Assembly: GCA_965214925.1 (NCBI GenBank)
Contig: OZ244028.1
Span: 3,710,058 to 3,774,057, forward strand
From: Candidatus Latescibacterota bacterium
GTDB taxonomy: Bacteria; Latescibacterota; UBA2968
Direction: 5' to 3'
DNA: 64,000 bases
Shown: positions 29,265-48,418 of the stretch, in pieces
How positions within the stretch are numbered: position 1 is the stretch's first letter
How the letters are laid out: each line of letters opens with the position of its first letter
Notes under the pieces: generated by a model
What the model saw: the letters and a program-made list of their open reading frames with translations, nothing else
Told to the model about the DNA's origin: nothing
The model's database searches: none
Made by a program: the position numbers and the translations under genes

Positions 29265-29927
29265 TAGGTTAAGTCAATAAACTTTTTTGAAGAATCACTC
29301 ATCTAACCTGTTGATTTCAAAGAACCTCTACACCAAAAAACTGTCCGAAGTATTGAAACACAAACACGTTGATTTCAAGGAGTCAAATCGTGAAGTCAAT
29401 TTCGGACATGATTAACGAACTCACGACACTGTATCACTACAGCATCAAATCTTTGGGAAGTGAACTCGGAGTTTCTACCTCTACCCAGTAATTTCTGGTT
29501 AGGCTTTTGCAGAGAGGAGACAGCGAGGTCACAGAAGGGTTGCTCAAAGGCAATTTCCATGAAAGGTTAGAGTTGTCAGAGAAAAATTCTACCCTTTCAA
29601 AGGAGACCTGCCCATACTATCTCTCAGGAAAAAGAAAATGTATGGCCTCAAGAAACGCCAACATTTTCTGCCCTGCTTTCGCCTTTAGAAGCTCAATTGC
29701 CCCATCTCACCCCGTTGGAATCGGGAGCAATAAACCGCTGACTTGCACATCAAACAAACGTCAATCGGTTTTTCTGTTGCCGTTTTTTATTTTTCGGCTT
29801 TTCTTTGCCTTCTGCCGCTCCGCTTTTCGCCCCCCCCATACCTTTCGCCTTTTGTCTGTGTCTATTGGTGTTAATACTCGCTTCTCACTTCTCGCTTCTC
29901 GCCTCTCCCCGATTTCAAGGACGTATC

Positions 29928-33146: not shown

Positions 33147-33406
33147 GCGCGCGGGACATGCTTGTCTGCCTCAGGTAGGCTTGCCTACCTGAGGTATGCT
33201 TGCGCGTTGTTGGTGTTTTGCCTTTGGGTTACGCTCATATCAAAGAGGGGAGACCATGTCGGAAACCATTACCATTATTGCCGTTGGCATTGCCATTGCA
33301 GGGCTGATAAGGTCAGCGCAACATAGATGCTCGGCTGATGGCCATTGACGCGCGATTATCTACGCTGGAACGCCAGCACAACGATCAATATCACAAGAGG
33401 ACGAAC

Positions 33407-33616
33407 ATGGAACACCAAAACTGGAAATGCCCAAAATGCACCCACGCGCATTTTGAAACCGATGTATTTCGCGCAACGGGCGGTGGCCTGTCGAGATTCT
33501 TTGATGTTCAAAACAAGAAATTCACAACCGTAACGTGCTCGCAATGCAATTACACAGAGATATACAGAGCCGACTCTTCAACGCTGGGAAACATATTTGA
33601 CTTCTTCACGGGCTGA
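33407..33616 (+). CDS. zinc-ribbon domain protein
   Basis: 'WKCPKC...FRATGGGLSRFFDVQNKKFTTVTCSQCNYTEIY' has two CxxC pairs. The start is probably the internal ATG (MEHQNW); the ORF extends to 33338. Confidence 0.7.
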   Translation: MEHQNWKCPKCTHAHFETDVFRATGGGLSRFFDVQNKKFTTVTCSQCNYTEIYRADSSTLGNIFDFFTG

Positions 33617-33726
33617 GGGGTCTTTCTTCTTTCTTCTGAGCAATATGTCTCTCTATACCACTCATTTTTTTTTCGCGTATCACGCCTGAAACGATTCTGT
33701 CAATACCCCTCCGCCACAAGACAAAA

Positions 33727-33765
33727 GCCCGATGGATCAGTTATCCACCGGGCTTATTATTTTTT
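33727..33765 (+). terminator. rho-independent terminator
   Basis: 'gcccgatgg' ... 'ccaccgggc' stem followed by a T-rich run (ttattatttttt). Confidence 0.6.
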
Positions 33766-33814: not shown

Positions 33815-34840
33815 TTATTGACCCCATTCCCTCGTCAAGTAATTGGATGACGGACTCGCATTGATGTTCAAGAGATCGCGGATTTCTTTCGCAAGCTCAA
33901 TTGCTTTGCCGCCTCGTGTATTATCGGTAACTACGAACCGCGCTCCAGTGGCTTTAACGTACTCAATGGTTCCTTCAAAGTCAGCGTGATTCGAAAGTGC
34001 TACGGCAAAGGCCCGTTTCGAATATTCTGTTACAGGTTCATCACTGCGGGTAAAGTATGCGCTGAGTGTGATCTGGGTTGAATTACCCATGTCGGTAGGT
34101 TCGCTATCACCTGTGCTATAGACTCTTATCAACCGATTTTCGTTGACTAACTGCTTCCCGTCAAGAGAGTCGGCATCCACCAATGAGCCAATGGTGTAGC
34201 CGAAATTTTTATAGATATTTATTTCCTTGCAGAGTCGTGCGCTAGCGATGATTGGGCAGTCTATCTCGACGGAGATCAATTGAAGCGCTCGCTGGATTGT
34301 GCCTCGATGAGCCTTGATATATACAGACCCATGTACCAATCTTTGATTGATCAGGGTTATCAGACGTTCTTCGCATTCTCCTTGTGAGAATCGACGGACG
34401 CTACTTGGCGATCCGTATGTTCCATCAACTACGAGACCATCAACCTTGATTACTTCGTCGAGGGGCCATTGGAAATCGCCGGAGTAGCCCAGGCGCGTGC
34501 CATTGGATAGTTCTACGAGAACTTGCACGGCACCTAACATATGTCCGCTTGGTACCAGATATACCTTCGAGGTGCCAATTTTATGCCATTCTCCCTTGTC
34601 AAGACTCTTGATGTTGGAGCGATAGGGCAGTTCTGCATTGTGCTCGCAAATGAGAAGTTGACGAGTCGGCTCGCTCATAATAATGTCTTGTATGCCTTTA
34701 CTGGAATCAAACCCGCTCATATGATCTGAGTGGATGTGTGTCTGCACTCGCGCCTTGGCATTGCTTAGAAAGCCATCGCAGCTTATGTCATCTCCCAGCG
34801 AAATGGCTCCTGAAGCATTTACGTCTATCGGATACTTCAT
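33815..34840 (-). CDS. metallo-beta-lactamase fold nuclease, compact beta-CASP type
   Basis: 'THIHSDH' (HxHxDH), 'VPSGHMLGA', 'GYSGDF', 'LVVDGTYG' and 'ALSNHADF' occur in the order typical of the beta-CASP (RNase J/CPSF73/SNM1) family. 4-nt ATGA overlap with the upstream gene. Confidence 0.75.
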   Translation of the reverse strand: MKYPIDVNASGAISLGDDISCDGFLSNAKARVQTHIHSDHMSGFDSSKGIQDIIMSEPTRQLLICEHNAELPYRSNIKSLDKGEWHKIGTSKVYLVPSGHMLGAVQVLVELSNGTRLGYSGDFQWPLDEVIKVDGLVVDGTYGSPSSVRRFSQGECEERLITLINQRLVHGSVYIKAHRGTIQRALQLISVEIDCPIIASARLCKEINIYKNFGYTIGSLVDADSLDGKQLVNENRLIRVYSTGDSEPTDMGNSTQITLSAYFTRSDEPVTEYSKRAFAVALSNHADFEGTIEYVKATGARFVVTDNTRGGKAIELAKEIRDLLNINASPSSNYLTREWGQ

Positions 34841-35541
34841 GCATAGCTCCCACGCACGTCTATTGCAGCATTGATATCCGTCTCTAGTTGGTCTGGTTCC
34901 ACATCAAGGAGTTTTGCCAAATCGTGGTTGGAGATAATCGTAAAGTTGTTGGGGCCGAGTCGACTAGTCGCCGGATAATTAAAAGGGAGTATCTTGTTCA
35001 TCGTTTGATCCATCAGTTCATCGCGCTCCTGCTGTGTGAGCGTTGTCAAGTACTGCTTCGCCTCGTTGTTAATAATTGCTCCAGCAAAAAGGTATCGAGT
35101 CTCGACCTGTGGTCGTAGTTTCAAGATATCAGCGATACAGTCGTGGACTGACTTTCGGGAACGCTTGGCTATCTGAACCAACTGTACTACCTCTTTCCAA
35201 GTGAGTCTGTGGCGGAGTATCGCCTCTGCCGCTTTGATCTGATCTGCCGGCTTTAGCGGTGCCAACTCAGCAAGCGTTGAGAATGCTATGGATGCACCTG
35301 TGGTTCCTCGCCAATCAGATAAGTGCTGGATATCGGGGGCAAGCCTGACGAGTTTCAGAAAGGTCGATATCTGAGTCGTGCCTACCTGCAACGCTTCGGC
35401 ACATTCTTTATGCAGGGTTCCAGCCGTAACTGCCTTGTTGAGCAATTGGGCAACCTCCAGTGGCGACAGAACGCGCTCACTTCGATGGGTACCAACGGAC
35501 AGGATGAGGTCCCTGTATTCGTCAGTTGAAAGTCCTTTCAT
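34837..35541 (-). CDS. ParB-like HTH protein lacking the ParB/Srx N-domain
   Basis: 'LSPLEVAQLLNKAV...CAEALQVGTTQISTFLKLVRLAPDIQHL' resembles the ParB HTH/middle domain. ATGA overlaps on both sides. Confidence 0.6.
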   Translation of the reverse strand: MKGLSTDEYRDLILSVGTHRSERVLSPLEVAQLLNKAVTAGTLHKECAEALQVGTTQISTFLKLVRLAPDIQHLSDWRGTTGASIAFSTLAELAPLKPADQIKAAEAILRHRLTWKEVVQLVQIAKRSRKSVHDCIADILKLRPQVETRYLFAGAIINNEAKQYLTTLTQQERDELMDQTMNKILPFNYPATSRLGPNNFTIISNHDLAKLLDVEPDQLETDINAAIDVRGSYA

Positions 35542-36368
35542 GAAGCAGGTTCCTTCCAGAAGTCATTGATATACAGCCCGTCTTGGATGAGCCTTCCGGC
35601 CGCGTCATCACTGTTTGTTCCCTCGGATTGGGCGTATTGTCCTAATGCGGTATGCACTTCCGAGGTCAGTGTGACCACAAGTTGAGTAATACGGCCTCCC
35701 GTCTTTGCCGTTTCAATCACATCATCTGCGGGCGTAGTCGGATCTTTTTTTCGTTCGTCTAAAATTTTCTTTTGCTGTGCTCCAGACATTGGGGCCATCT
35801 CTTTGGCGAACATGACCGCTTCTTCTATGTTGATGTCTCCACTACTACTTGCGGCCTGTTGGGCGCGTAGGGCAGTCGGTAGTGGCACACTACTGTCATC
35901 TACCAAAACTTGTAGTTGGGGGACTAACTGATCATACTTCACATACTGGCTCACTTTCGGGTAGGATAATCCAGTTTGCTCTACCACTGCTTTTATGGAG
36001 CCGTAGTGCTTGTAGAGCCATGTGCAAACATCAATGAGGTCAGAAGAGTTGAGGTCCAGTCGCACTAAATTTTCGGTAACGGACAGCACTTTTGCTGTGA
36101 GTTCGTCCACAGACTCATCCAATATAGCGGCCAGGATTGTCTCTGTTTCGAGGTGTACGTGGGCCATGAACCGTCTCTGCCCGGTAACAATCTCGTACTT
36201 GCCTTCCAGGTCGCTTTCGCAGACCACGATCGGTTCGAGAAGTCCCACTTTCTGAATGCTGGCGGCTAATTCATCAATCTCCTTATTCACATTGCGTGTT
36301 CGTGCCTGCGCTTTTCCTATGGTGAGATTTTGGAGAGGTATCTCCCGTACTTCCTTGATGTGGGCCAT
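35538..36368 (-). CDS. ParB/Srx N-terminal domain protein with HTH and RHH-like C-terminus
   Basis: 'IPLQNLTIGKAQARTR...LAASIQKVGLLEPIVV...YEIVTGQRRFMAH' is the ParB box region. The C-terminal 'ITQLVVTLTSEVHTALGQYAQSEG' is RHH-like. The start is set at the ATG preceded by an AAGGAG SD; the ORF extends to 36407. Confidence 0.75.
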   Translation of the reverse strand: MAHIKEVREIPLQNLTIGKAQARTRNVNKEIDELAASIQKVGLLEPIVVCESDLEGKYEIVTGQRRFMAHVHLETETILAAILDESVDELTAKVLSVTENLVRLDLNSSDLIDVCTWLYKHYGSIKAVVEQTGLSYPKVSQYVKYDQLVPQLQVLVDDSSVPLPTALRAQQAASSSGDINIEEAVMFAKEMAPMSGAQQKKILDERKKDPTTPADDVIETAKTGGRITQLVVTLTSEVHTALGQYAQSEGTNSDDAAGRLIQDGLYINDFWKEPAS

Positions 36369-36432
36369 TTTATATTCTCCTTTTGACTGTTGAGGTTCGA
36401 AACTCAATTCGTCTGCAAAATAACAATTTCAA

Positions 36433-36510
36433 CTACAAATGGCAAATCGCACATCTCTCGGTTTCGTCAATCATGGGCAAGGACCCAAGACAGATGTGTT
36501 TGGTCTTTCC
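36433..36510 (-). pseudogene. remnant of the 3' end of a second sspD/dndC-like (PP-loop) gene
   Basis: Translates as 'GKTKHICLGSLPMIDETERCAICHL*', compared with the intact SspD-like C-terminus 'GKTLDDIANQPLRDLPVIDETEGCAICHL*'. The 48-nt core 36434-36481 matches 42029-42076 at 43/48 positions. A TAA stop lies immediately upstream in frame. Confidence 0.8.
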
Positions 36511-36568
36511 TTAGCCATCTATCAACTTCCTTTCTTGAAATAGGTTCGACTCCCTCTTATACCTCCTG

Positions 36569-37024
36569 TTATCGCAATAACTCATCCAAAGCGTCAGAAA
36601 GATTCCAGATTGGTTCCAGGTCGTCATCGCGTAGCATTTCTACGATGTAGGGAACGCCCGCTGCTGCCAGACCATTGGCAATGGTCATCATGCGCCGTGG
36701 TTCACCTACGATTTCCACATTGTCCTCAACAGCGATAGCAACTAGCATCACTGCCTGAATTCGCCAACTGTCCCGGTCAAAGATCGAGCCTTCAATGAAC
36801 TTGAAGGTTTTCTGCCTGGCTAGATCAATCGGCCTGAGTTGCTTTCGCGCTGCGACTGATAGTCCGACAAACCAGAGATCAACCATGCGTGGAAACGGAC
36901 ATTGGTCAATGCTGGTAGTACCGCCCCTTGTCTGAGTCTGGCAATAACGGTCATAAGCGTCACGTTGATCAATAGGTGCAATCAGATCAATGCCGGCGAA
37001 TGGATTATGATATCGCTGTGTCAC
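36569..37024 (-). CDS. 151-aa hypothetical protein, possibly dnd-system-associated protein 4 / SspF-like
   Basis: Lies 10 nt downstream of the DndD-like ATPase gene. The helical protein ('MLVAIAVEDNVEIVGEPRRMMTIANGLAAAGVPYIVEML') is assigned by context and memory only. Confidence 0.45.
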   Translation of the reverse strand: MTQRYHNPFAGIDLIAPIDQRDAYDRYCQTQTRGGTTSIDQCPFPRMVDLWFVGLSVAARKQLRPIDLARQKTFKFIEGSIFDRDSWRIQAVMLVAIAVEDNVEIVGEPRRMMTIANGLAAAGVPYIVEMLRDDDLEPIWNLSDALDELLR

Positions 37025-37034
37025 TGCTGCCCTC

Positions 37035-39176
37035 CTAAAATGTCTGTTCCATTTCTGATTCTAAATCCATCCGTCGCTGGCACACTGTACATTCTCTGCG
37101 ATGATTGCACTCGCACCACAATACTGTCCGCTCTTTCATCTGTGGGTCATTGATCAGCATGCGGGGATAGTGCGCCGGATTTGTCAGCGTGATCACTCGT
37201 CCTGCTTCAGTATCCAGAATGTCCTCGCAGTCTGCGATCTCAGAGCGCGTGAGAAACAGGACAAGTTGCGAACTTTCGCGGATAGCGGTCTTGAGCACGG
37301 ACCGCTTGACATAGCCACTCATCATTCCAAGCGGTGTATCAATCACATTGGGGGCTTCAACCTCACTCACCTTAGTCAATGCGAGAATAAAGGCGAGGGT
37401 CAGTGCCCGCCGGGAAGCACCATTCAAGTCACGGTCAGGATTCAGTGTCCGATTATCCGGTCCATAGACCAAAATATCGAATTCTTTGCTAATTTCCGCC
37501 TTTTGAATGATTGCGTTCTGTTCAGGGTCGGCACCGATCATTTCCAGGAAGATTGCATTCATTCGCTCACTGACCTTAGCCAATTCTTCATTCGTAATCC
37601 GATTATAGGAATTTTCCAGAACTTGCTTTACGTCCTGCGTTACTTCAAGTTGCGCCAATATGCGAGTCCCCTTCTTCTGTTCTCGAAGAAGGTTATTGCG
37701 GGTTGCGCTCAGAGAGATTTGTTCTTTTTTCAGCCCTTCGAGCTGGGTTTCGTATCGCACTTGGTTAGCGTAGAAGCGGTCACGCTGATTTGCATAGCGT
37801 CGCTTAGTATCACAAAGGCCCTGAATGTCAATATCCGGTATATCGCCAAGTTTTACTTCAAGAGCCTTGCGTTTCTTTCCCTGATCTACGAGCCTAGAAT
37901 CTTGCTCGTCGCGGTGTGCAAAGATCTTGGCATATTCGGCAAGCCAGCGTTCTTCATCGGTGACCTGATCCGGCTGAAATGACCGGGATCCATAATAAAG
38001 GTCGGTGACTATTCTTTTTGACTCATCCTCCTTCCGACTCTCATCGATCAGGCACTGGATATGGTTTCTTCGTCGTTTGCCATCACCATCGTTTGGAGCC
38101 AGCGACTCACCGCAAATACAAGTAGTACCCTTGAGGCGTTCTTCAAGGACGGGAATTGTCTCGTTGGGTATCTTGCCTTGGTCGTACAGTCTGTTCAACT
38201 CTCCGAGACTTTTTTTAACTACGGGGGCGAGGAGGTCACGTGAAAGCGAAAGGCTGCGAAACAATTTTGAATGCGCTTTGCCGGCGGCCTCTCTCTGTTC
38301 CTTGATCTGCTTTAGCTGTGCTTCGGTTTGTTCGATATCGCGCTTGAGTGCTTCCCGGTCGCCCTTGATCAAGGCTGCATCGATCTTCTTTTGAACCTCG
38401 GCGAGCTTTTCATCGTACGCTGAAAACTGTTCCTTCGCATCATCTCTTCTTTTTTCCAGGTCTGCCGAGACTTCATTAATCTGATCCAACCGAATCGCGA
38501 TCTGGGTAAGTTTCTCATCGGCCTCAATATTTTTTGCCGCCTTATTGACCTCAGAAGCTGTCTTTTTTATATGCCCTAGTGCATCCTCAATCACGCCAAG
38601 CCCCAATAAAGACCGGATCGCCTTTTCAACGCGCTCGCGCTTGGTTCTGACGTTCACATCTGCTTCGATGAAGCTCAGCGCACGGTCCCCGTCGGTAAAA
38701 AATACTTCACGAAGCTCGGGTGGGAGTTCATCATTAATCAGTGATTCAGGCCAGCCAATAGGCTCACTGCCGGTGTCTGTTAATTCGAACAGTTTTACTG
38801 TCGATGGAGTGTGATCCCATTTATCGCCGTTTAATGTCTCAAATGCTGATCGTATAATGAGATATTGTTGTCTGGTTTCAAATGAGCCTCTTGGGCCTCC
38901 AAGCTTCGTTATCTCAAATTTGACCTGTACGGATATTGGAACCCTACTGCTGTCCGCTACATCCCAATCGATCGGGTGGAGGCGGTAATCTTGGCGTTTA
39001 CCGGGCAAGGCATCATCGCCATAGAGTGCCCATTGCAGTCCATTCAGAATGGTGGTCTTTCCGGTTTCATTCTCGGCCCGGATGACTGTTAGTTTCTTCG
39101 AAGTATCTGTTGAGAAGTCCAAATCCAGAGGGCGCAAAAGGCGAAAATTTTCAAATTTGGCGCTGATCAGTTTCAT
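37035..39176 (-). CDS. DndD-like SMC/Rad50-type ATPase (SspG-like?)
   Basis: N-terminal 'FENFRLLRPLDLDF...VIRAENETGKTTILNGLQWALYG', a long coiled-coil middle, and C-terminal 'LNGASRRALTLAFILAL...APNVIDTPLGMMSG' (compare DndD 'VIDTPLGRLD'). The terminal cluster is CxC...CxxC. Confidence 0.75.
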   Translation of the reverse strand: MKLISAKFENFRLLRPLDLDFSTDTSKKLTVIRAENETGKTTILNGLQWALYGDDALPGKRQDYRLHPIDWDVADSSRVPISVQVKFEITKLGGPRGSFETRQQYLIIRSAFETLNGDKWDHTPSTVKLFELTDTGSEPIGWPESLINDELPPELREVFFTDGDRALSFIEADVNVRTKRERVEKAIRSLLGLGVIEDALGHIKKTASEVNKAAKNIEADEKLTQIAIRLDQINEVSADLEKRRDDAKEQFSAYDEKLAEVQKKIDAALIKGDREALKRDIEQTEAQLKQIKEQREAAGKAHSKLFRSLSLSRDLLAPVVKKSLGELNRLYDQGKIPNETIPVLEERLKGTTCICGESLAPNDGDGKRRRNHIQCLIDESRKEDESKRIVTDLYYGSRSFQPDQVTDEERWLAEYAKIFAHRDEQDSRLVDQGKKRKALEVKLGDIPDIDIQGLCDTKRRYANQRDRFYANQVRYETQLEGLKKEQISLSATRNNLLREQKKGTRILAQLEVTQDVKQVLENSYNRITNEELAKVSERMNAIFLEMIGADPEQNAIIQKAEISKEFDILVYGPDNRTLNPDRDLNGASRRALTLAFILALTKVSEVEAPNVIDTPLGMMSGYVKRSVLKTAIRESSQLVLFLTRSEIADCEDILDTEAGRVITLTNPAHYPRMLINDPQMKERTVLWCECNHRRECTVCQRRMDLESEMEQTF

Positions 39177-39418
39177 CGGATACCTCCCTCGGCCATTTTG
39201 GTTTGACCTCGCTTCTCCGCGAGAAAATGGCCTGCCGCATTACACTTGTCATTTATCTGTTTTTGAATATTCGTTCTCGATACGCGATGCGCTCTTTCAT
39301 ACTGAAGGATGTCGGAGATTACTTCGATCATCTCCTCTTGGTATCCGTCGCATCTCTCCTCAACCGTTTTGCACTCATCGAGAATGATGCTGATAATTTT
39401 TCGTTCGTTGAGCGGCAT
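39173..39418 (-). CDS. 81-aa hypothetical protein
   Basis: ATGA overlap with the DndD-like gene and 12 nt after the PLD-helicase gene. Helical and charged, with no recognised family. Confidence 0.5.
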   Translation of the reverse strand: MPLNERKIISIILDECKTVEERCDGYQEEMIEVISDILQYERAHRVSRTNIQKQINDKCNAAGHFLAEKRGQTKMAEGGIR

Positions 39419-39430
39419 TGTCTCCCTCCC

Positions 39431-41671
39431 TTAGAAAACTGCGTTGACGAGTTCATGAATGAGACTCAGCGGGCCGTCAGCCCTGCCGGCATTTCGCGCA
39501 AGGCTGGCAAATTCCTGTATCCGCAAGAGTTCCGATCGGATTAGGGTGCGGGCCTCACCGTCGATATTACCCATATCCGGCGGCAATGCGATGAAGTCGT
39601 GAATCTCGCTATGCGTTTTGCCAATTTCGCGGCAAGTGCGGAGAAGTCGTCCTCGACGCTGTACCCATTGCCGTTCCACTGTGGTACTTGCGAGGATGAA
39701 AGCCTTTTCAATCTGCGGAATGTTCACGCCTTCGTCAAGGACGCGCTTTGCGGTAAGGACGCGATGTGTGCCTTCTTGAAAGGACTGAATAATACGCGCC
39801 ATCTTATCGCGGTTCGCTGTTTCTACGTGAGTAAGTTGGTGAAAAAGTACTCCGTGTGTATTCAATAACGCATTGACGGCGTTGAGTTGCTGTGGTGCCT
39901 TATCAGAGGCATAAATCAACGTATGGCGAAGCGTCCGAAGGTCTTCGCGTATCAAGGCTTTCTCTAGAGCAGCAATTTTATTTTTAGCATTTTCTAAGAG
40001 TGCCCGACGGTCTCTGAGCAACTTGGTGAGATACTCATCGGGTTCCCCGTTCTCCTGACGCCAAGCATTCGCCTTGATCTTCGCGGTGAGGGCATACCAC
40101 TCATCCATCTCATCCTGCGTGAGTTTCACTGGATGGACGTAGTAATCGTATTCAACGAGACATCGCCCGATTGCTTCCTTGAGTGTGAATTGGAAAACAA
40201 CCGGGCCAAAAAACGAAAACAGGATCTCTGTTCCCTGTTCATCATATTGGCGAATAGGGGTTGCAGATAGACCAAGCCTGTAATCGAAGAAAGAGGGCAG
40301 ATCAGTTATGAATCCCTCACTTCCCAAATTGTGTACTTCATCCGCAATGAGCAAGGTATCACAGTCAAATTTTTCAACTTCAGCCTTAAACGCGCTATTG
40401 CAAAGTGTACGGTGCGAAACGACAACGGCCTCAATGTTGCTCATTCCATTTCGGAACCGCCGTTTGATCCTATTGAGTTCATGTGCCCGTCCCCTTGCGC
40501 CATTGGCCGCGGTCAGATTAACCGCTTTGAGTCCAAAGGGCGCGATCTCATCACACCATTGCTGAATGAGGGGGACATAGGGAGCCGCAACGACGATAAG
40601 AAGAGGTTTATACACATCATATAGCCTATGAGCGCAAATCATGGCAGTGATCGTCTTGCCCGACCCGGTCGCCATTTCCAAGACGCCCCGATAACCGGCT
40701 TCACACCAAGCCTTGACTGCTTTGCCTTGGTGCTCAAATGGTCCATCCTCAAATTGAAGGTCTGGTGGTATCGCAAATGACCCGTAGAGTTTAGGAGATT
40801 CTTCCACAACTGAAAATTCAGTTGCCCGCCTATAGAGCGCGCGCAAATCTGTCTCTGTTGGCGGGATGTCAGAGCAGTAGGTCTGCAATAGCTGTCTCTG
40901 GATAGCCTGTGGCATCCCAACGACGATGCAGCGATCATCTTCATTTTCCCAAAGCTGTCCGAATTGGTCACAAAACTTTTCGGTGATGTAGCGTTGGTTG
41001 GGATCCTCCCACGATTTGGAAATGGAGATTTGCTCAATATTCTTCCGAATACCGGCATAAGTCATGTTGCTTGACCCGTGCGCTGCTATTACATCACCAT
41101 CTCCACTAAAGAGCCAAACCTTTGGATGGAAAAGCGCGTCTTTCATCAAGGCAATTTTGATCTTGATGCGCCCACTACGCAGCAACCAAGAAAGACATTT
41201 CAGCGTGTGTTTCTGAACGAGGTCTTCAGTGACAACAATATCTTCTAAAGCGGCATTGGCGATATCTTCAGGAGAGATCACGCCTTTTTCGATTGCGGCC
41301 TTGTCTTCGGCTCGGAGAAGGGGACTGATGATCAAGCGAAAACTTTCTTGTGAGCAGTTTACAAAAGTAGCCAAGCCTGGGGCTAGTGACGCCAAAACCT
41401 CACTGGAAAAGAAGCCCACCATGCAATCAACTTGGGCAGCGGCCTGAAAGCATGGAATAAGCACCTCTTCTGTCACCGGATCATCAGGTAGTATGTAGAG
41501 TGGCCTTGTATCGGACACTGACCGCAGAGTCCTGCCATTGATCTCTGCCACCTTCAAATCCCTATCAGGTGCTACTTGGGCGACTGATCTGCCAAAGTGC
41601 TTTCGCTTGGGGCCAACTTTTCGCACTTGCAAGGTTCGCAAGTCATACTCTGGACGCAGTTCATCCTGCAT
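39431..41671 (-). CDS. PLD-family nuclease + SF2 (ResIII/DEAH) helicase fusion, PT-system restriction-enzyme-like (SspH-like?)
   Basis: PLD motif 'FHPKVWLF...AHGSSNMT'. Helicase motifs 'MATGSGKTITA', 'LIADEVHNLGS', 'GLSATP' and 'QRRGRLLR'. The start is set at the ATG at 41671, 7 nt after the brnT stop; the open frame extends to 41758. Confidence 0.8.
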   Translation of the reverse strand: MQDELRPEYDLRTLQVRKVGPKRKHFGRSVAQVAPDRDLKVAEINGRTLRSVSDTRPLYILPDDPVTEEVLIPCFQAAAQVDCMVGFFSSEVLASLAPGLATFVNCSQESFRLIISPLLRAEDKAAIEKGVISPEDIANAALEDIVVTEDLVQKHTLKCLSWLLRSGRIKIKIALMKDALFHPKVWLFSGDGDVIAAHGSSNMTYAGIRKNIEQISISKSWEDPNQRYITEKFCDQFGQLWENEDDRCIVVGMPQAIQRQLLQTYCSDIPPTETDLRALYRRATEFSVVEESPKLYGSFAIPPDLQFEDGPFEHQGKAVKAWCEAGYRGVLEMATGSGKTITAMICAHRLYDVYKPLLIVVAAPYVPLIQQWCDEIAPFGLKAVNLTAANGARGRAHELNRIKRRFRNGMSNIEAVVVSHRTLCNSAFKAEVEKFDCDTLLIADEVHNLGSEGFITDLPSFFDYRLGLSATPIRQYDEQGTEILFSFFGPVVFQFTLKEAIGRCLVEYDYYVHPVKLTQDEMDEWYALTAKIKANAWRQENGEPDEYLTKLLRDRRALLENAKNKIAALEKALIREDLRTLRHTLIYASDKAPQQLNAVNALLNTHGVLFHQLTHVETANRDKMARIIQSFQEGTHRVLTAKRVLDEGVNIPQIEKAFILASTTVERQWVQRRGRLLRTCREIGKTHSEIHDFIALPPDMGNIDGEARTLIRSELLRIQEFASLARNAGRADGPLSLIHELVNAVF

Positions 41672-41678
41672 TGTTGTC

Positions 41679-42005
41679 TCATCCTTCCTCATACCTGCCT
41701 GCCAGAGTCGCGCGACAGGCAGGGGTTTGTCTCTCTCTGCGGGTTGTTTCTCTTGCACTAATCAAACGAATCGCATCTCCCCGCTCGGTGTATGATACGA
41801 TTAACAAACGACCGCGCTTTGATTGTCCGATGATAATATACCGATGCTCATTATACGAGTGATCGGGGTCATAAAAATCAATATAGAGCGTGTCCTTGAA
41901 AACAGCACTTGCTTCGTCGAATGACACACCGTGCTTTGACAGATTCGCCTCTGCTTTGTTTTTATCCCATGTAAATGCCATAGGCATAACGTCTGATAAA
42001 TCCAA
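41679..42005 (-). CDS. brnT: BrnT-family (DUF497) toxin
   Basis: 'FTWDKNKAEANLSKHGVSFDEASAVFKD...DHSYNEHRYIIIG...LLIVSYTERGDAIRLISARETTRRER' fits the BrnT family pattern. Confidence 0.8.
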   Translation of the reverse strand: MDLSDVMPMAFTWDKNKAEANLSKHGVSFDEASAVFKDTLYIDFYDPDHSYNEHRYIIIGQSKRGRLLIVSYTERGDAIRLISARETTRRERQTPACRATLAGRYEEG

Positions 42006-42027: not shown

Positions 42028-42855
42028 TTACAAATGGCAAATCGCGCATCCTTCGGTCTCGTCAATCACGGGCAAGTCTCTAAGGGGTTGATTTGCAATG
42101 TCGTCTAAGGTCTTCCCATCCACCCAAGTAAATTGCTTCCCATTTTTCGCCTGCTCGTATTCCTTTGCTTTCTCAAACAAATCGGGATGTTCTTCTTTCA
42201 ACCGCTGCCATTCCCCAACCTGCTGGTAAAAGCAAAAATAGCATCCCGACCGCGACCGCCATTTGTAGTACTCCGGCAGACCAAGCCCTGACTCCTCCAA
42301 AATCTGCACAACATCCGCCAAGCCAAGTCCATCGTCCTTAAACGGATAAACGGGAATGATATTGGGCTGCTGAGAAATCGAGGGTGGTTTTTTTGCAATA
42401 TATCCATCTCGGTCTTCATCGTCGCGGATGCCGATATAGCTATACGCCCGGCTGTTGCCAACGTAATCTTCAAACGGTTCGATTTTCAACACGCGCGTAC
42501 ACCACCGCGATCTCGGGCTGGGCAAATAGCCGCCGTATATCTCATTCAAATACATATCAAACGGAGTGCGCCCGGGCTTTTTCTCCACCCCTAAACCGTC
42601 GAGCGCGTTTAGGCGACGAACAGTAACGCCAAGCAGTGCCTCTAAGCACTCCAAATACGCATACGTTTCATCTAATTCACATCCGGTGTCACAGAAGACA
42701 TACTCCACAGGGATTTGGGGATAGTTCTGCCGCATATAGATGGCCAAGGCGGCTGAGTCTTTCCCCCCTGAAACACTGACGATATGCCGAATGTCAGTTG
42801 CTGAGCCTGTCGAAACATCAGACAGATTGTTCAAGGCATCTTGTATTGTGGCCAT
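42028..42855 (-). CDS. sspD: PAPS-reductase/PP-loop ATP pyrophosphatase, SspD-like
   Basis: PP-loop 'VSVSGGKDSAALAIYM' and a C-terminal Cys cluster 'CYFCF...CAICHL'. The start is at the ATG 1 nt after the sspC stop; the ORF extends to 42924. Confidence 0.8.
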   Translation of the reverse strand: MATIQDALNNLSDVSTGSATDIRHIVSVSGGKDSAALAIYMRQNYPQIPVEYVFCDTGCELDETYAYLECLEALLGVTVRRLNALDGLGVEKKPGRTPFDMYLNEIYGGYLPSPRSRWCTRVLKIEPFEDYVGNSRAYSYIGIRDDEDRDGYIAKKPPSISQQPNIIPVYPFKDDGLGLADVVQILEESGLGLPEYYKWRSRSGCYFCFYQQVGEWQRLKEEHPDLFEKAKEYEQAKNGKQFTWVDGKTLDDIANQPLRDLPVIDETEGCAICHL

Positions 42856-42856
42856 G

Positions 42857-45800
42857 CTAATCCTTTCTCGTATTGTCTCTGAGAATGTGTGCAAACAAAT
42901 CACGGGCTTCTTCCGCACCAACAATATGGGTTAAACGTCCATACAATTTCTTCATGCGTTCTTGGACGAGATGAGTCAACCCATTTTTCATTGCGCCGCT
43001 TACACGGAACTCAGACGACAGGGCTAATTCCTCAATGCGTCTCACTGCGCTGTGAATTTCCCGATCAAAAGCTGCGATGCTGCTGTCATCCCATCGGTTG
43101 AGCGTCTTGCGAAGCAGCAAGCTAGACAGGGAATCAATGAGTTTGTCATCAGACGGATACGGCATACGCACACGGGAGAGGAGGCCCTTTGACACACTGT
43201 CATTGAGCATATTGGACAATTCATCGGGAAAACAAAATGCCCAATGGCGCGCGATCTCCTGCACATCTCTGTTTTTGGATTTCCAGTTCAGAGACAGGGC
43301 CCTAAGTAAAGAAGCAATTGCTTCTTTCCGGTAGCCGTCAATGACCTCAGAGAGTTCATTTTTGCATTTTTCGAGGGATTCCAACAACAAGTGTTGCTCT
43401 TGAATTGAGCACGCTAATGCGCTTGGAATGCGCTCAAAAAGCAGTTCCACCGGATCGGACTGCTGACGAAGTGCTGTTTGGAAGCGACGGGTTTGCGCGG
43501 TTAAACGCCGGGTTGAAAGCGCGCCTGTGGGAAGACTCATCTTCCAGTTTTCAAGCGCGTCATAGCAGGCCCGAATGAGATCATTTCCATTCGCTTCGCT
43601 CAGGACAGGTCCGGTCGTTAAACTTTTCGCCTGTGCCACACCGCCAAAGCGTTCGCAAATAGCCCGAAGATACGCTCGTTTTGTCTGATCGAGATCTAAG
43701 ACAGTAAATTCATATATTTCCGGTTCACGACATAACGCCTCAATCCTCGAAGGCAAAATATCAGACACATAACGCCCTTTATAGCGCAGAGAAAACACAC
43801 TCGGAAACGCTTTGAGACCTGCGGAAAAGAGAATGGGCAACAACCCGGCGCGAACCCCATAAGGAGGTTCCATCAGTTCATTGAAGAACCCTCGAATATC
43901 CTTGGGTTTTACCGATGGCATTGTGAAAAATGCACGCACCTTATCCCAAACATCGCTTAGCCCTTCATCCTCCACTTCCTCGGGCATCGCATAACGCCAG
44001 CGTCCCTGCCTGCGCCGCGGGCGCGGTAGGCAGGCATCATCGTCTTTTCTGTACAATCCCGTGTGTAGCAGCACCGTGCGGAACATGGACGCAGCAGGGG
44101 AATTGCCTTCAATCCCGAGATTCTCTTGACCGCTCCGTTCGAGAATACCGAGCAAGAGCTTCTTGCGCGCGTTCACCATAATGGGGGTCGGTTTGCGCCG
44201 AACAATCATCTCATTGTTGATCTTGGGTGTATGCGGGAAAATTTTTGACATGATTTTGGATAGTTCGTTCCTCAAGTCATAAGCACTTTTAACGGGCAAC
44301 TCGTTATTTCGAAAAAAATAGCGTGGCCCGTCACCACTCGGCAGGATCAACCGATCGAGAAGCTTTTGAAGATGGCTACGGGCATCATCTGTCATCTGTT
44401 GAATTTCAGACAACACATGCGGGTCTGATTCCACCAACTTATCATCCTCCTGCATCTGAATTAAACACCACACTTCCAAAGCTGTCTCAAACAGAGGGAT
44501 AGGGGCTTTGGGTATCGCAAGAATAACCCGTTCATCGCGCACGTGCTTGGCAGCCAGTGAACTTCTGTCGAAGTTGTACACCACTCGCTCTGCTTCCCGA
44601 AGTTCCTCTGCTGTCTCGACAATCACATAGATACAAATACCGTCACATCCAACAGGAATATTATGAGAAATGTTTGCCCCCAAGTATTCATCCAGTTTTT
44701 CCAAGCTACGATACGCGCCTAGAAGAAAACGCCTGATGTGAAAGTCGCTGTTATATGTGACCGGTCGCCAAACAGGAGGACTAGCCTCATCTGCCAAGAA
44801 AGTCATGAAATCGAATGTCCTTCGCTGCCGTGATTTTTCTTCTTCAAGCCTGCCCCGAAGATCGACATCTGTCCCATGCCAAACAGAGACTTCATCGCTG
44901 TGTTTTCTGTGTAAAAGGAGCTTTCTGTCTATGAGTTGATCAACGACTGCTTCTGCCTGCTGTGGTTGACGATAGCCGCGCAGGGCAAACAGCAGCAAAT
45001 CGCGGGACGTGCGAGACCGCTCGCCACCGACCCCGAAACCCAACAGGCTTGCGGTTCGCAGTGCTGTTGCCGCCAGGTCATTGTCATCGTCCAACTTCGA
45101 GAGGGCACTTTGTGTTTCGAGCCATTGTCTATATGTTCCCCCTACGGCTGTGTCTGTACGCATTTCAGGTGAAAAGTATTCGTAGAGATGGTCCGGCCGA
45201 ACGAGATGCTGAAAGTCCATAAAATTGAGAAAGCTGAACAGTGTTCTTTCGTTCTGAGCGACTCGGCCGGAAAGGCGGGGTAACAAGTACAGGGTCGTCG
45301 GCTCTAGGGGATATGCTCGGCGCAGAAGCGATTCGAGTTCCGGTAGGGTAAAGTCGGAAAACAGCCCGAGTTGCTTGCACCATTTTGCATACGACATAGC
45401 TTGTTTGGCAGGCAATTCAGAATAGATGGTCAGATCGGAAAACAGGCCGATCTGATCGTCCCCTTCCTGCCTGTGCGTTGCACGCAGACAGGTTGCAGGC
45501 ATGCGGTTCTGTGCGGAAACCACTTCGGATATCAAGCGGTATATTTCCTTGCTGTCGTCGATATACTGAATCGTCTGAAAACGACCCTCAATTTTTCGCC
45601 ACTCGGATCGAACCGACTGCGGCATACTGCCCGCATATTGCAACAACTCTTGATGCAACAACAGCCCGAGCGTTACGGGAATGGCCTGTGATCGACTCAC
45701 AAACTCAGCCAACAATTGAATTTCACTCAAAGCAACGGAACGCCCCTCAGAAATCAAAGACTCAATATGGCGTCCAAACTCATCCCACAAAATCGCAATC

Positions 45801-46336
45801 CGATCACAGCCTGCGGCGCGCGCCTTGTCCCGAACCACACTGAGCAACGCAATTGCCTGCTCAATTGTCTCACACGGCATTGACGCAATAGTACGAGCTT
45901 GCCGACCGAGTTTCATACGCCGCATTCCCTTCAGCGCGGCATCTTTCAGACTTTCGCTCAAATTCCGACAATAGTCCTGCAATACCAGCACAAGTCCTGT
46001 GTCTTTATTCTTGCGGCGTTCTTTGGAAAATTTGCCCAAATCTGGACTGACAACCCGTAGCCTGTCTTCGACCACAGTGAGTGTCTCATCAGCATTGGGG
46101 CGATTTTCAATCATAAGCGACAAATAGGTCGCCGTAATTGACTTTCCCGTTCCATAAGGCGCGACAACAAAAAATGCCCTGTCTCGTTCAAAACCGAGCA
46201 GGGATTTTATGAGAGGGACACTTTTAGCCGTGGGTTGGTAGTGTGCAATCCGATCCGGATAATCTGCATCGTATTGAATGTTGATGGAACGCAGAAATAC
46301 TTCAGCATCGAACTCAACTATTTTCTTACGCGGCAT
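42857..46336 (-). CDS. sspC: large P-loop ATPase, SspC-like
   Basis: 1159 aa with Walker A 'VVAPYGTGKSITA' and a probable Walker B 'RIAILWDEFG'. It lies between the DUF4007-like and PP-loop genes, with overlapping stop and start codons. Confidence 0.7.
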   Translation of the reverse strand: MPRKKIVEFDAEVFLRSINIQYDADYPDRIAHYQPTAKSVPLIKSLLGFERDRAFFVVAPYGTGKSITATYLSLMIENRPNADETLTVVEDRLRVVSPDLGKFSKERRKNKDTGLVLVLQDYCRNLSESLKDAALKGMRRMKLGRQARTIASMPCETIEQAIALLSVVRDKARAAGCDRIAILWDEFGRHIESLISEGRSVALSEIQLLAEFVSRSQAIPVTLGLLLHQELLQYAGSMPQSVRSEWRKIEGRFQTIQYIDDSKEIYRLISEVVSAQNRMPATCLRATHRQEGDDQIGLFSDLTIYSELPAKQAMSYAKWCKQLGLFSDFTLPELESLLRRAYPLEPTTLYLLPRLSGRVAQNERTLFSFLNFMDFQHLVRPDHLYEYFSPEMRTDTAVGGTYRQWLETQSALSKLDDDNDLAATALRTASLLGFGVGGERSRTSRDLLLFALRGYRQPQQAEAVVDQLIDRKLLLHRKHSDEVSVWHGTDVDLRGRLEEEKSRQRRTFDFMTFLADEASPPVWRPVTYNSDFHIRRFLLGAYRSLEKLDEYLGANISHNIPVGCDGICIYVIVETAEELREAERVVYNFDRSSLAAKHVRDERVILAIPKAPIPLFETALEVWCLIQMQEDDKLVESDPHVLSEIQQMTDDARSHLQKLLDRLILPSGDGPRYFFRNNELPVKSAYDLRNELSKIMSKIFPHTPKINNEMIVRRKPTPIMVNARKKLLLGILERSGQENLGIEGNSPAASMFRTVLLHTGLYRKDDDACLPRPRRRQGRWRYAMPEEVEDEGLSDVWDKVRAFFTMPSVKPKDIRGFFNELMEPPYGVRAGLLPILFSAGLKAFPSVFSLRYKGRYVSDILPSRIEALCREPEIYEFTVLDLDQTKRAYLRAICERFGGVAQAKSLTTGPVLSEANGNDLIRACYDALENWKMSLPTGALSTRRLTAQTRRFQTALRQQSDPVELLFERIPSALACSIQEQHLLLESLEKCKNELSEVIDGYRKEAIASLLRALSLNWKSKNRDVQEIARHWAFCFPDELSNMLNDSVSKGLLSRVRMPYPSDDKLIDSLSSLLLRKTLNRWDDSSIAAFDREIHSAVRRIEELALSSEFRVSGAMKNGLTHLVQERMKKLYGRLTHIVGAEEARDLFAHILRDNTRKD

Positions 46337-47231
46337 GATGATCTCTCCATTGGATCGCTTCGTAATGATTTCTCAGCCAATCAATGGGTCGTATTCGCGG
46401 AATGCGTATCCTTCGATCCCCGGCGAAACCGAGCACGCGGATATCCTCGTTTAAATTCTTTTTTTCGGCCTTAAGAGCAAGCGCGAATAGCGATTCACTG
46501 GTCAACGCGAATGCCCTGCCGGGTCCGCCTGGGCTCGTTGCTGCCTCTCTCACAGATATATTGACTGTGCCTTGGCCCGTTCGGGCCTCCACAAATGCTT
46601 TGGAGAGGGCATATCCGAGTAAATATGTCGGGACTGCTTTCTCGCCTTGATGCACTTGGTAATATCTCGACGTATGAAAATAACTCATTAAACCGAGCTC
46701 AACAAATGGACATTCAAGTGCTTCTTCTGGATCCTTATGTTCGATTGGAATGTGTCTGGCATAGCTATGCAAAAGGCAAGCAACATCTCGCTCAATAGTC
46801 CTTGGACTGAGCTTTCGATCTTGCTGTAGATAGCGAGATAGCCTGTCTATGCACATAGCCCTTTCAAATCGGGAGTGACTGAAATGATTGAAGAACCACG
46901 TCCAAGTAAAAGCTTGATTTTCGGGATTCACCAGATTGATGTGCAAGGCCCACCAGGTCCCGATTTCTATAAAATAGGGATCGCGATCGTAAATCAGCCT
47001 GCCGAGTTCTGTTACTTCCAATCGGGTCTGACGCCCATTGGCTCGTTTTCGCACGGCCAATCCCGTGACCTCCAACCAGTGGCGAATAGAACGGGACATG
47101 TTTTTGCCAACGCCGAGCCAATCCGCAACATATTCATCGAATAACAACTCGGGGTCTTCAATCAGCAACTTCAGCCCTTTGTGAAGCCACCCTTCTCGAA
47201 TTGCAAATGTTTCGTGTCCACTGAATTTCAT
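46326..47231 (-). CDS. sspB: DUF4007-like protein, SspB-like
   Basis: N-terminus 'MKFSGHETFAIREGWLHKGLKLL' is the hallmark start of DUF4007 proteins. ATGA overlap with the desulfurase gene. Confidence 0.75.
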   Translation of the reverse strand: MKFSGHETFAIREGWLHKGLKLLIEDPELLFDEYVADWLGVGKNMSRSIRHWLEVTGLAVRKRANGRQTRLEVTELGRLIYDRDPYFIEIGTWWALHINLVNPENQAFTWTWFFNHFSHSRFERAMCIDRLSRYLQQDRKLSPRTIERDVACLLHSYARHIPIEHKDPEEALECPFVELGLMSYFHTSRYYQVHQGEKAVPTYLLGYALSKAFVEARTGQGTVNISVREAATSPGGPGRAFALTSESLFALALKAEKKNLNEDIRVLGFAGDRRIRIPRIRPIDWLRNHYEAIQWRDHHAA

Positions 47232-48418
47232 GATCTCACCCCTGCCAAAGGCGTCAATCGCCGTCGCCTAAATCGGCGCAATTGTCCACACAAACGCTCG
47301 ATATGTGCAACCGTCTCATCGACCTCTTCAATCGCATTGAACTCCGAAAAGCTAAATCGGATACTCGAGTACGCCTCTGCTTCAGAAAGGCCCATCGCAC
47401 GCAACACATACGACGGTTCGGGCCGCTGATTGGTGCATGCCGAACTCTGCGAACACCGAATCCCTTCCTGATCCAACCGAGCCACGAGTGCCTGACCATC
47501 CACATCCCGAAACAGCAAATTTGTCGTATTGCAAATCCGCAACTCGGGATCGCCATTGATCGCCACATCGGGCACGCGATCCATAACGGACTGCTCAAAA
47601 TAATCCCGCAGCGAAGCCATAAGCACCTGCACATCCGCAAGCCGATTCAATCGCACCTGCGCCGCGGTGCCCATGCCAACAATGCCGGGCACATTCTCTG
47701 TTCCCGGCCGCAATCCACCTTCTTGCCCTCCGCCCCAAAGCAGTGGAAACAACCCTTTGGACGCTTTCACATAGAGCGCGCCAACGCCTTGGGGCCCGTG
47801 GAATTTATGCGCGGTAAACGTCAAAAAGGCAACGGGCAGTTCGTCTAAAGAAATGGACAACTTGCCAACGGCCTGCGCGGCATCGGTATGGCATAACACA
47901 CCTCGGGCTTGGCAAAGCCGAGCAATCCGCTCAATGGGCAAAATCGCGCCCGTTTCGTTATTGACCCACTGCACAGAAACCAGATCCGTGTCTGGCGTAA
48001 CGGCTTCGGCCAGCAAGCCCCAACTCAACTGCCCATTCCGATCCACGGGAACAGATACGACCTCAACGCCTTTTTCACCGAGATAGTTACACATCTTCAC
48101 AATGGACGAGTGTTCTACGGTCGTTGTCACAATGCGAACCCGTTTTTCCGTTTGGGCGCGTTGAACAACAGAATTGAAGACCGTGTTATTGGCTTCGGTC
48201 CCACTCCCCGTAAACACAATCTGATCAGATGTAGCACCGACCAACTTTGCAACGGCGTCACGCGCTGCAACCATGGCGTCGCGCACGCGGTCGCCAGCCA
48301 AATGCGCGCTCGACGGATTGCCAAACCCCTCGTCCAATACGCGCATCATCGCGTCGCGCACCTCGGGCAACGGTTGCGTCGTCGCATTATTGTCCAAATA
48401 CATTTCGCGCATCATCAC
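47228..48418 (-). CDS. sspA: cysteine desulfurase (class V aminotransferase), SspA/DndA-like
   Basis: 'LDNNATTQP', 'FTGSGTEANN', PLP-Lys 'FTAHKFHGPQGVGALY' and the catalytic Cys loop 'SQSSACTN'. Confidence 0.85.
   Translation of the reverse strand: MMMREMYLDNNATTQPLPEVRDAMMRVLDEGFGNPSSAHLAGDRVRDAMVAARDAVAKLVGATSDQIVFTGSGTEANNTVFNSVVQRAQTEKRVRIVTTTVEHSSIVKMCNYLGEKGVEVVSVPVDRNGQLSWGLLAEAVTPDTDLVSVQWVNNETGAILPIERIARLCQARGVLCHTDAAQAVGKLSISLDELPVAFLTFTAHKFHGPQGVGALYVKASKGLFPLLWGGGQEGGLRPGTENVPGIVGMGTAAQVRLNRLADVQVLMASLRDYFEQSVMDRVPDVAINGDPELRICNTTNLLFRDVDGQALVARLDQEGIRCSQSSACTNQRPEPSYVLRAMGLSEAEAYSSIRFSFSEFNAIEEVDETVAHIERLCGQLRRFRRRRLTPLAGVRS

Follow-up and report, generated by a model that had tools for sequence, protein, structure and literature searches.

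A ParB and beta-CASP nuclease cassette beside DNA phosphorothioate genes of a Latescibacterota bacterium: a candidate restriction module

We analysed a stretch of 64,000 nucleotides from the genome of a Candidatus Latescibacterota bacterium (GenBank assembly GCA_965214925.1, contig OZ244028.1, positions 3,710,058 to 3,774,057 of the forward strand; hereafter the window). On its minus strand it carries a trio of genes encoding a ParB-type protein of 276 aa, a 234-aa protein reduced to the helix-turn-helix (HTH) DNA-binding region of ParB, and a 341-aa metallo-beta-lactamase (MBL) with the motifs of beta-CASP nucleases. An original prediction, made from the letters of the window and its open reading frames (ORFs) alone, had presented these genes as an undescribed effector module with a historical tie to an operon for DNA phosphorothioate (PT) modification. 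The three outcomes that would have spoken against this prediction and that computation could address all fell in its favour. Comparative genomics supports both the linkage to PT genes and the undescribed status of the trio, which elsewhere usually follows an SNF2 helicase gene to form a four-gene cassette, and the effector role is one that we infer.

The three genes are translationally coupled (Table 1). ORF calling places them where they had first been read, with ATGA stop/start overlaps coupling them exactly at 35538-35541 and 34837-34840, and the 200-nt spacer described ahead of them is also present, ending at the stop of the upstream ORF (36569). GGAG precedes the ATG of the ParB gene. Within the spacer we found a promoter-like site (TTGCCA-17-TATTTT, 36445-36417); promoter-like sites are no more numerous in the region than expected by chance, and this one is suggestive by virtue of its position alone, ahead of the ParB gene. 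The spacer also holds a near-perfect palindrome of 18 bp, TTGAGGTTCGAAACTCAA, a possible operator site for the ParB and HTH proteins. No second copy of it was found in the window and none in the related loci described below, and a conserved operator or parS site was dropped as an explanation on that ground. The hairpin that follows the MBL gene is strongly terminator-like, judging from its stem and tail.

By its motifs, family profile and modelled fold the 341-aa protein is a genuine beta-CASP enzyme, for which nuclease activity is predicted. In 42 sequences of the family D22, the HxHxDH motif (H35, H37, D39 and H40), H100 and D122 are invariant, as are CASP motif A (D139, within VVDGTYG) and motif B (H285, within SNHAD), both of which align to PH1404 and SNM1A in a profile comparison. 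A search of the PDB with the family profile returned beta-CASP chains only (archaeal CPSF, SNM1A, CPSF73, Artemis and Cas14), so that the motif order noted in the original prediction is now backed by a profile. An AlphaFold model of the protein, with a predicted local distance difference test (pLDDT) score of 88 and a predicted template modelling (TM) score of 0.86, gave beta-CASP nucleases as all of its best 50 Foldseek matches, the best size-matched ones being Apollo and SNM1A. Beta-CASP enzymes normally have His at motif C when they act on RNA and Val when they act on DNA; the corresponding column of this family holds an invariant Asn (Asn307). Among NCBIfam models the top match is TIGR04122, the ligase-associated DNA damage response exonuclease (9e-18), but its score of 64.1 bits is far below the cutoff of 325, and neither a ligase nor Lhr is encoded among the genes called in the annotated loci. 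In its compact beta-CASP fold and complete metal site the MBL resembles SNM1, Apollo, Artemis, the TIGR04122 proteins and Cas14 of type VII CRISPR, which provides an earlier example of a beta-CASP protein acting in defence; the MBL differs from all of them in sequence, with an identity of only 14-20%, and in the Asn at motif C.

The first gene of the trio encodes a ParB N-domain and a ParB HTH, as originally read. The protein matches Pfam ParB_N with 3e-16 (59.6 bits against a cutoff of 26.3) and TIGR00180 with 1e-21, the latter over residues 6-156, which comprise both N-domain and HTH. Its nearest solved relatives are Noc (3e-13 in the PDB), ParB and Spo0J. The NTP-pocket motifs GLLEPI, GQRRFMA and ENLVR (GxLxPI, GQRR and ENLxR) are kept across 73 homologues, and the N-domain has the arginine patch (GxxRxxA) and adjoining motifs of the ParB/Srx superfamily. 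The ribbon-helix-helix tail proposed for this protein did not hold up: a beta-alpha-alpha sequence pattern was its sole basis, and the C-terminal 57 aa gave zero Pfam matches even at E <= 10, leaving a ribbon-helix-helix model unsupported. The DndB model (DGQHR, TIGR03233) was absent from the NCBIfam matches of either ParB-like protein.

Such a protein, bona fide ParB/Noc-like by sequence and with a palindrome in the leader of its gene, might be expected in a partition or replication set of a plasmid, prophage or chromosome, and trios of plasmid-partition or prophage genes with no enrichment near defence genes had been named as the finding that would speak against an effector module. The genomic context contradicts this. 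BLAST of the ORFs with a Soj query sequence detected no ParA/Soj-like gene within 10 kb in 84 loci, and the sole match of this query in the window (62965-63678) lies 27 kb from the trio. No homologue of the MBL was found in IMG/VR (2.9 million viral contigs) or PLSDB (72,556 plasmids), and every long contig with such a homologue is chromosomal, up to 7 Mb. Together with the unrepeated palindrome these results led us to reject a ParABS, plasmid or prophage identity. The 276-aa protein does have the N-domain motifs and HTH DNA-binding domain of the CTP-dependent clamps ParB, Noc and KorB, and the pairing of KorB with KorA, a small HTH protein, is a loose parallel to that of the ParB protein with the HTH-only protein. 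Unlike these clamps, the trio is found without ParA and outside any plasmid or origin context, and the ParB protein is constantly accompanied by a nuclease and an SNF2 helicase rather than by a partition ATPase. A role in partition or replication is thus very nearly negligible among the readings that we considered.

The second protein of the trio matches Pfam HTH_ParB over residues 25-124 (4.7e-5, 23.9 bits against a cutoff of 22.6) and gave no Pfam match to ParB_N. Its AlphaFold (AF2) model has a pLDDT of 92 and retrieved with Foldseek mainly the DNA-binding domains of ParB, Spo0J, Noc and KorB, at TM scores of 0.70-0.76 normalised to the isolated domains, with a few Raf1 and ribosome-assembly proteins as a minority of matches. 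It begins at the equivalent of ParB box III and is therefore without a nucleotide pocket, and its last ~90 residues form an unassigned alpha/beta domain. A ParB HTH region deprived of its N-domain, as first described, is thus what it contains. The description of the two proteins as paralogues fared less well: direct BLAST between them is not significant (E = 1.1), hhalign of the 234-aa protein against the ParB profile gives E = 6e-4 with a probability of 28%, and direct paralogy is weakly supported from profile and fold comparisons. In PADLOC no model matches this protein or the MBL, and the ParB protein gives weak matches to ParB domains only (MTase_II, PD-Lambda-5_A), in accordance with the earlier failure to match the trio to any named system.

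Related loci were assembled from species-representative genomes (80 loci) and other look-ups (10 loci), giving 87 distinct loci; trio and SNF2 genes were counted in the 80 loci whose upstream flank reached at least 4 kb, and PT genes in the 73 where it reached at least 9 kb. The MBL family is large: clustering at 90% identity gives more than 1,600 clusters, and there are, among 50%-identity representatives, 171 clusters at E <= 1e-30 and 630 at E <= 1e-3. The loci come from Chloroflexota, Poribacteria, Gemmatimonadota, Acidobacteriota, Planctomycetota, Gammaproteobacteria, Binatia, Latescibacterota and other lineages; all 87 belong to uncultured genomes or metagenome contigs, and many carrier genomes look marine or sponge-associated, judged from lineage and bin names. 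A scan of JGI metagenomes with a single protein gave one locus only, L090 (DndC-DndD-SNF2-trio). Upstream of the MBL gene a ParB gene is present in 77/80 loci and an HTH-only gene in 78/80, and an SNF2 helicase of ~460 aa lies immediately upstream of the trio in 66/80 (83%). The usual form of the cassette is therefore SNF2 helicase - ParB - ParB-HTH-only - beta-CASP nuclease. Its SNF2 helicases have intact Walker A and B motifs and match the DpdE and ZorD models.

The neighbourhood search that had been proposed along with the original prediction found this cassette beside PT writers. A PT gene of the PAPS-reductase type (SspD or DndC) is present in 63 of the 73 loci (86%), usually on the same strand, in a fixed order and with overlapping or abutting genes. 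MBLs of only 30-34% identity are still found in ParB-HTH-MBL trios, one of which adjoins a cysteine desulfurase (L088) and another a DGQHR (DndB-like) gene (L089). The clades of the MBL follow the type of writer, which points to a long-term association. The linkage between the cassette and PT genes is very strong, ancient and independent of writer type. A cysteine desulfurase gene also lies directly after the MBL gene in L029, L073 and L084.

Three non-homologous writer sets recur among the 73 loci. SspB-SspC-SspD is found in 10 (e.g. L002, L004, L006 and L086) and DndC-DndD-DndE in at least 9 (e.g. L090, and L030, where DndE was confirmed with Pfam). In L016 (3168-12217) the cassette lies inside the dnd operon itself, in the order DndC-DndD-DndE-SNF2-ParB-HTH-MBL-DndA. 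The commonest architecture, in 37 loci, combines DndA, a short DndC and a GmrSD-like protein (DUF262+DUF1524), and with the cassette these genes make up a tightly packed seven-gene operon, DndA - short (400-aa) DndC - GmrSD-like - SNF2 - ParB - HTH - MBL (L044, 2833-11008; L061, 2667-11014; ~35 other loci). Neither DndD/DndE nor SspB/SspC was found within 10 kb in loci of this type, two of which (L036 and L052) are missing SNF2.

These operons suggest an alternative in which the cassette would serve PT modification or its maintenance, through writing, regulation or repair. In one version the SNF2 and ParB proteins would replace DndD/DndE or SspB/SspC, with ParB acting like DndB or DpdB, which are ParB-fold proteins of the modification side; in another the beta-CASP protein would be an SNM1-like end-processing exonuclease at nicks or at oxidative damage of PT sites. 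The lack of these genes around the majority operon is in accordance with this alternative, as are the position of the L016 cassette between dndE and dndA, the TIGR04122 match, the Apollo and SNM1A folds and the high conservation of the cassette across lineages. However, cassettes with intact motifs are also found beside complete SspBCD and DndCDE writers, which need no extra factor in model organisms, intact cassettes occur without a nearby writer, SNF2 is dispensable in ~17% of loci including the two just named, and the ParB protein has no DGQHR/DndB signature. It can also be speculated that the GmrSD-like NTPase-nuclease replaces the missing nickase/ATPase, in which case the role of the cassette would be constant. 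On balance we consider a role in writing or repair unlikely, though it is the strongest rival of a restriction role.

The same operons could be taken further, as a third, self-contained PT system that is independent of DndDE and SspBC. A ParB-type NTP-dependent clamp and the SNF2 motor would then run along the DNA and guide sulfur insertion by DndAC as well as restriction by the beta-CASP enzyme, with modification and restriction carried out by one complex as in type I restriction-modification systems or BREX. The trio of the window would be the reader-effector half of such a system, re-attached to an Ssp writer. We put this forward tentatively and regard it as doubtful.

In the window the trio stands at the end of a low-GC island (~33.0-48.4 kb, GC ~0.48-0.50 against 0.55-0.61 on either side) in the order SspABCD - BrnT - PbeABCD - trio. 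The borders of the island showed neither a tRNA nor an integrase, the nearest tRNAs being at 26.0-26.7 kb, and an Rfam scan of the island gave no matches. The PT writer operon SspABCD (42028..48418, minus strand) is intact and contains the Pfam families Aminotran_5, DUF4007 and PAPS_reduct. As listed, the sspD ORF starts with TTG and overlaps sspC by 68 nt (42857-42924); since the alignment to the SspD model does not begin before residue 46, the real start is probably an internal Met (MATIQ...). PbeA also matches TIGR04095 (1e-112) and Pfam PLDc_2, ResIII and Helicase_C. Its PADLOC alignment begins at residue 91, and the real start therefore probably lies downstream of the listed GTG; the first ~90 codons, outside the PbeA model and with no family match, might be a cognate BrnT antitoxin or reflect a mis-called start. 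PbeC carries a CIC motif in its translation and matches TIGR03185 (DndD, 9e-29) under the cutoff. The 81-aa protein in the PbeB position has no significant match in Pfam, NCBIfam or PADLOC, and the 151-aa protein in the PbeD position has none in Pfam, NCBIfam, PADLOC or the PDB and no similarity to its counterpart in L076, a locus described below. Just outside the island a 1113-aa protein (29805-33146, plus strand) combines a C-terminal half that contains a UvrD/REP helicase with ~500 N-terminal residues without a Pfam match; it matches the GajB and DRT-helicase models of PADLOC, as any UvrD-family helicase may. At the island edge a small Zn-ribbon protein (33338-33616, plus strand; Pfam DUF2082, 1.6e-28) is encoded convergently with the MBL gene.

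Table 1. Genes and sequence features of the trio and the adjoining island (coordinates of the window)
Feature	Coordinates	Strand	Description
Terminator-like hairpin	33725..33755	-	13-bp stem then T-rich tail, ~60 nt past the MBL stop codon
Compact beta-CASP metallo-beta-lactamase (MBL), 341 aa	33815..34840	-	Invariant columns, PDB profile, fold
ParB DNA-binding-domain-only partner, 234 aa	34837..35541	-	HTH + helical domain, ~90-aa alpha/beta C-terminal domain
ParB-type NTP-switch protein (predicted), 276 aa	35538..36368	-	ParB N-domain, ParB HTH, C-terminal beta-alpha-alpha segment
Spacer	36369..36568	-	Contains sspD 3' remnant, promoter-like site, 18-bp palindrome
18-bp near-perfect palindrome	36390-36407		Between promoter-like -10 and ribosome binding site of ParB gene
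sspD 3'-end remnant	36434..36481	-	48 nt, 65 nt upstream of ParB ATG
PbeD-position protein, 151 aa (clade-2 DndE-like position)	36569..37024	-	Position only, as PbeD in PMC10853773
PbeC, CxC-type coiled-coil ABC ATPase	37035..39176	-	PADLOC PbeC 2.5e-46
Small protein, 81 aa, PbeB position	39173..39418	-	Located between PbeA and PbeC
PbeA, PLD/HKD nuclease fused to SF2 helicase	39431..41758	-	PADLOC PbeA 7e-197
BrnT-family ribonuclease toxin gene	41679..41987	-	Pfam BrnT_toxin 3.8e-29; between sspD and pbeA
sspD	42028-42924	-	PADLOC SspD 5e-94
sspC	42857-46336	-	PADLOC SspC 1e-153
sspB	46326-47231	-	PADLOC SspB 3e-114
sspA	47228-48418	-	PADLOC SspA 7e-128

The spacer ahead of the trio preserves a trace of how this order came about. 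The remnant of an sspD 3' end that it contains is identical to the end of the intact gene (42029-42076) at 43/48 positions (90%, E = 1e-12) and remains in frame, encoding SLPMIDETERCAICHL followed by a TAG stop where intact sspD encodes DLPVIDETEGCAICHL and TAA. Three of the five differences are synonymous, which argues that the remnant diverged while still coding. It resembles the SspD C-terminus of the window type, unlike that of L002 and L086, and possibly extends to ~36540. The remnant reported directly upstream of the trio is thus real; the genes immediately upstream of the trio are the PbeD-like gene and pbeC, and intact sspD lies 5.6 kb farther. Since the remnant lies so close to the ParB ATG, the ancestral order would have been sspD-trio, with no SNF2 gene between them. 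The 5.6-kb BrnT-PbeABCD block appears, from this arrangement, to have entered between sspD and the trio at a later time, its arrival involving recombination within sspD, and as a result the SspABCD writer now has two candidate restriction modules downstream. Together with the PT linkage of the family, the remnant substantiates the historical tie of the trio to a PT operon.

No SNF2 homologue was found anywhere in the window, and the trio could accordingly be a non-functional leftover that lost its SNF2 and was displaced from sspD by PbeABCD, a reading that overlaps with the others. The remnant does attest a rearranged locus, and many SNF2-less loci elsewhere look degraded. Against this, none of the three ORFs is truncated, each retains all invariant residues of its family, and the ATGA couplings, ribosome binding site and terminator are all present. 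The trio was moreover already SNF2-less while joined to sspD, which also weakens the idea that PbeABCD substitutes for the missing SNF2. Finally, a second and phylogenetically separate locus has the same composition: L076 (27-3167), the only other PbeA-PbeC-PbeD-trio locus, has an MBL of a separate lineage and is without SNF2. We therefore judge it improbable that the trio of the window is a mere leftover.

The MBL of the window groups in the clade of Ssp writers with SNF2, and its nearest relatives (66% identity) include L086 (SspA/SspBCD-SNF2-trio) as well as L085 and L087, which have an intact SNF2-ParB-HTH-MBL cassette and no PT gene within flanks of 7-10 kb. Locus L076 has no PT writer in the 10 kb covered and is preceded by genes for a WYL-WCX regulator, YhcG (PD-(D/E)XK) and Mrr, that is, by a defence island, and L001 lies between IS elements. 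Such loci are what one would expect of an autonomous defence system that is merely co-localised with PT genes in islands and does not read PT. This is difficult to reconcile with the 86% adjacency to PT genes, usually on the same strand and in fixed order, which is far above island co-localisation, with the L016 cassette inside a dnd operon, or with an association that spans three writer types and reaches down to 30% identity. In addition, 7/8 loci with full flanks and no PT genes are also without SNF2, and several look disrupted: besides the IS-flanked L001, L009 has no ParB gene and L022 neither ParB nor HTH. An autonomous system is thus, in our view, decidedly improbable.

Comparison with known PT-associated modules places the trio among them by context and apart from them by content. 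The closest in logic is SspE, a ParB-superfamily (DUF262) NTPase switch that links DNA/PT status to a nuclease and is encoded directly after sspBCD; the trio likewise combines a ParB-fold NTP pocket with a nuclease. SspE is a single polypeptide with a nuclease of DUF1524/HNH type, whereas the trio splits a switch of ParB N-domain and HTH from the beta-CASP enzyme, has an extra HTH-only protein and usually an SNF2 motor, and none of its proteins is matched by an SspE model. SspFGH, another three-gene module found beside sspBCD, has been proposed to cause damage in DNA that carries no PT (Wang et al. 2021, PMC8092258). Apart from a Walker A motif in SspF and an FtsK/SpoIIIE-like C-terminus in SspH, its proteins showed no homology to annotated genes (PMC8092258); lacking any ParB or MBL domain, they are set apart from the trio by the published domain descriptions (PMC8092258; V. 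anguillarum A1QU_04845-04855), and we rejected an SspFGH identity. PbeABCD (Xiong 2019; re-annotated in PMC10853773) likewise counts as a candidate restriction module associated with PT, and it occurs directly ahead of the trio here and again in L076. It brings together an HKD nuclease-SF2 helicase, a small protein, a CxC ABC ATPase and a DndE-like protein; no component of it is homologous to the trio, and the PbeA and PbeC models match the upstream genes and not the trio. DndFGH resembles the cassette as an ATP-dependent translocase and nuclease module paired with a PT writer, and its domain content (P-loop kinase, triple wHTH, REase and HerA/FtsK) is wholly unlike. DndB and DpdB are, like the ParB protein, ParB-superfamily NTP-binding proteins in DNA-modification operons, and the Dpd system also has an SNF2-like helicase, DpdE. 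DndB is a regulator of the DGQHR type and DpdB assists base insertion, both on the modification side; neither is coupled to a beta-CASP nuclease, and the ParB protein of the trio, nearest to Noc and Spo0J, is not matched by the DndB model.

We found no description of an MBL-ParB-SNF2 cassette with PT genes in the openly searchable full-text literature, subscription-only papers being outside this scope, and two broad comparative-genomic surveys of the Aravind laboratory (Dnd/Ssp, BREX) mention no MBL. The set of components, ParB, ParB-HTH-only protein, beta-CASP MBL and usual SNF2, thus appears to be undescribed, while the pairing of a PT writer with a restriction partner is of a kind already known.

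In model organisms SspBCD and DndCDE each form a complete writer, and the cassette is therefore an addition to them, placed where the known restriction partners sit. Because it joins a nuclease, a usual translocase, DNA-binding proteins and a nucleotide switch, our favoured reading is that it is a PT-coupled restriction or effector module, with the genomic role of SspE, SspFGH, DndFGH or PbeABCD, to which we assign, on comparative sequence evidence, a probability of roughly 0.55. In the mechanism that we propose, translational coupling would supply the three proteins of the trio in fixed proportion. The full-length ParB protein would bind DNA via its HTH, with its intact NTP pocket serving as a switch or clamp, and its N-domain-less partner, DNA-binding and nucleotide-free, would work with it. 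The pair would load on DNA, distinguish PT-marked self from unmarked DNA, and recruit or license the beta-CASP nuclease, by which unmarked DNA would be cut or resected. Where it is encoded, the SNF2 ATPase would add translocation.

Several points weigh against this restriction role. The dependence of the cassette on PT is inferred from adjacency alone, and the few intact cassettes with no PT gene in their flanks (L085 and L087) do not share that adjacency. In the 37 of 73 loci that have no DndD/DndE or SspB/SspC within 10 kb the cassette could serve writing instead. The closest NCBIfam relative of the MBL, a DNA-damage-response exonuclease, would fit a repair role equally well, and the ParB-fold proteins of other modification systems, DndB and DpdB, act on the modification side. 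The copy in the window may be impaired, since it is without the SNF2 found in 83% of loci. Lastly, the best 120 MBL homologues are 55-67% identical across distantly related lineages, which is high for a defence effector.

From the point of view of PT biology, sspE or sspFGH is present at only ~15% of 2,678 sspBCD loci (PMC8092258). Most sspBCD and many dnd operons thus have no known restriction partner, and the cassette would fill part of this gap. A ParB NTP switch, a truncated ParB, a beta-CASP nuclease and, usually, an SNF2 motor have not previously been seen together in a defence system. The cassette may have gone unnoticed so far because all of the related loci come from uncultured genomes and metagenomes. 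With it one can ask by what means PT marks are recognised, whether clamps of the ParB type can serve as immune sensors, and whether DndA and DndC can write PT without DndDE or SspBC.

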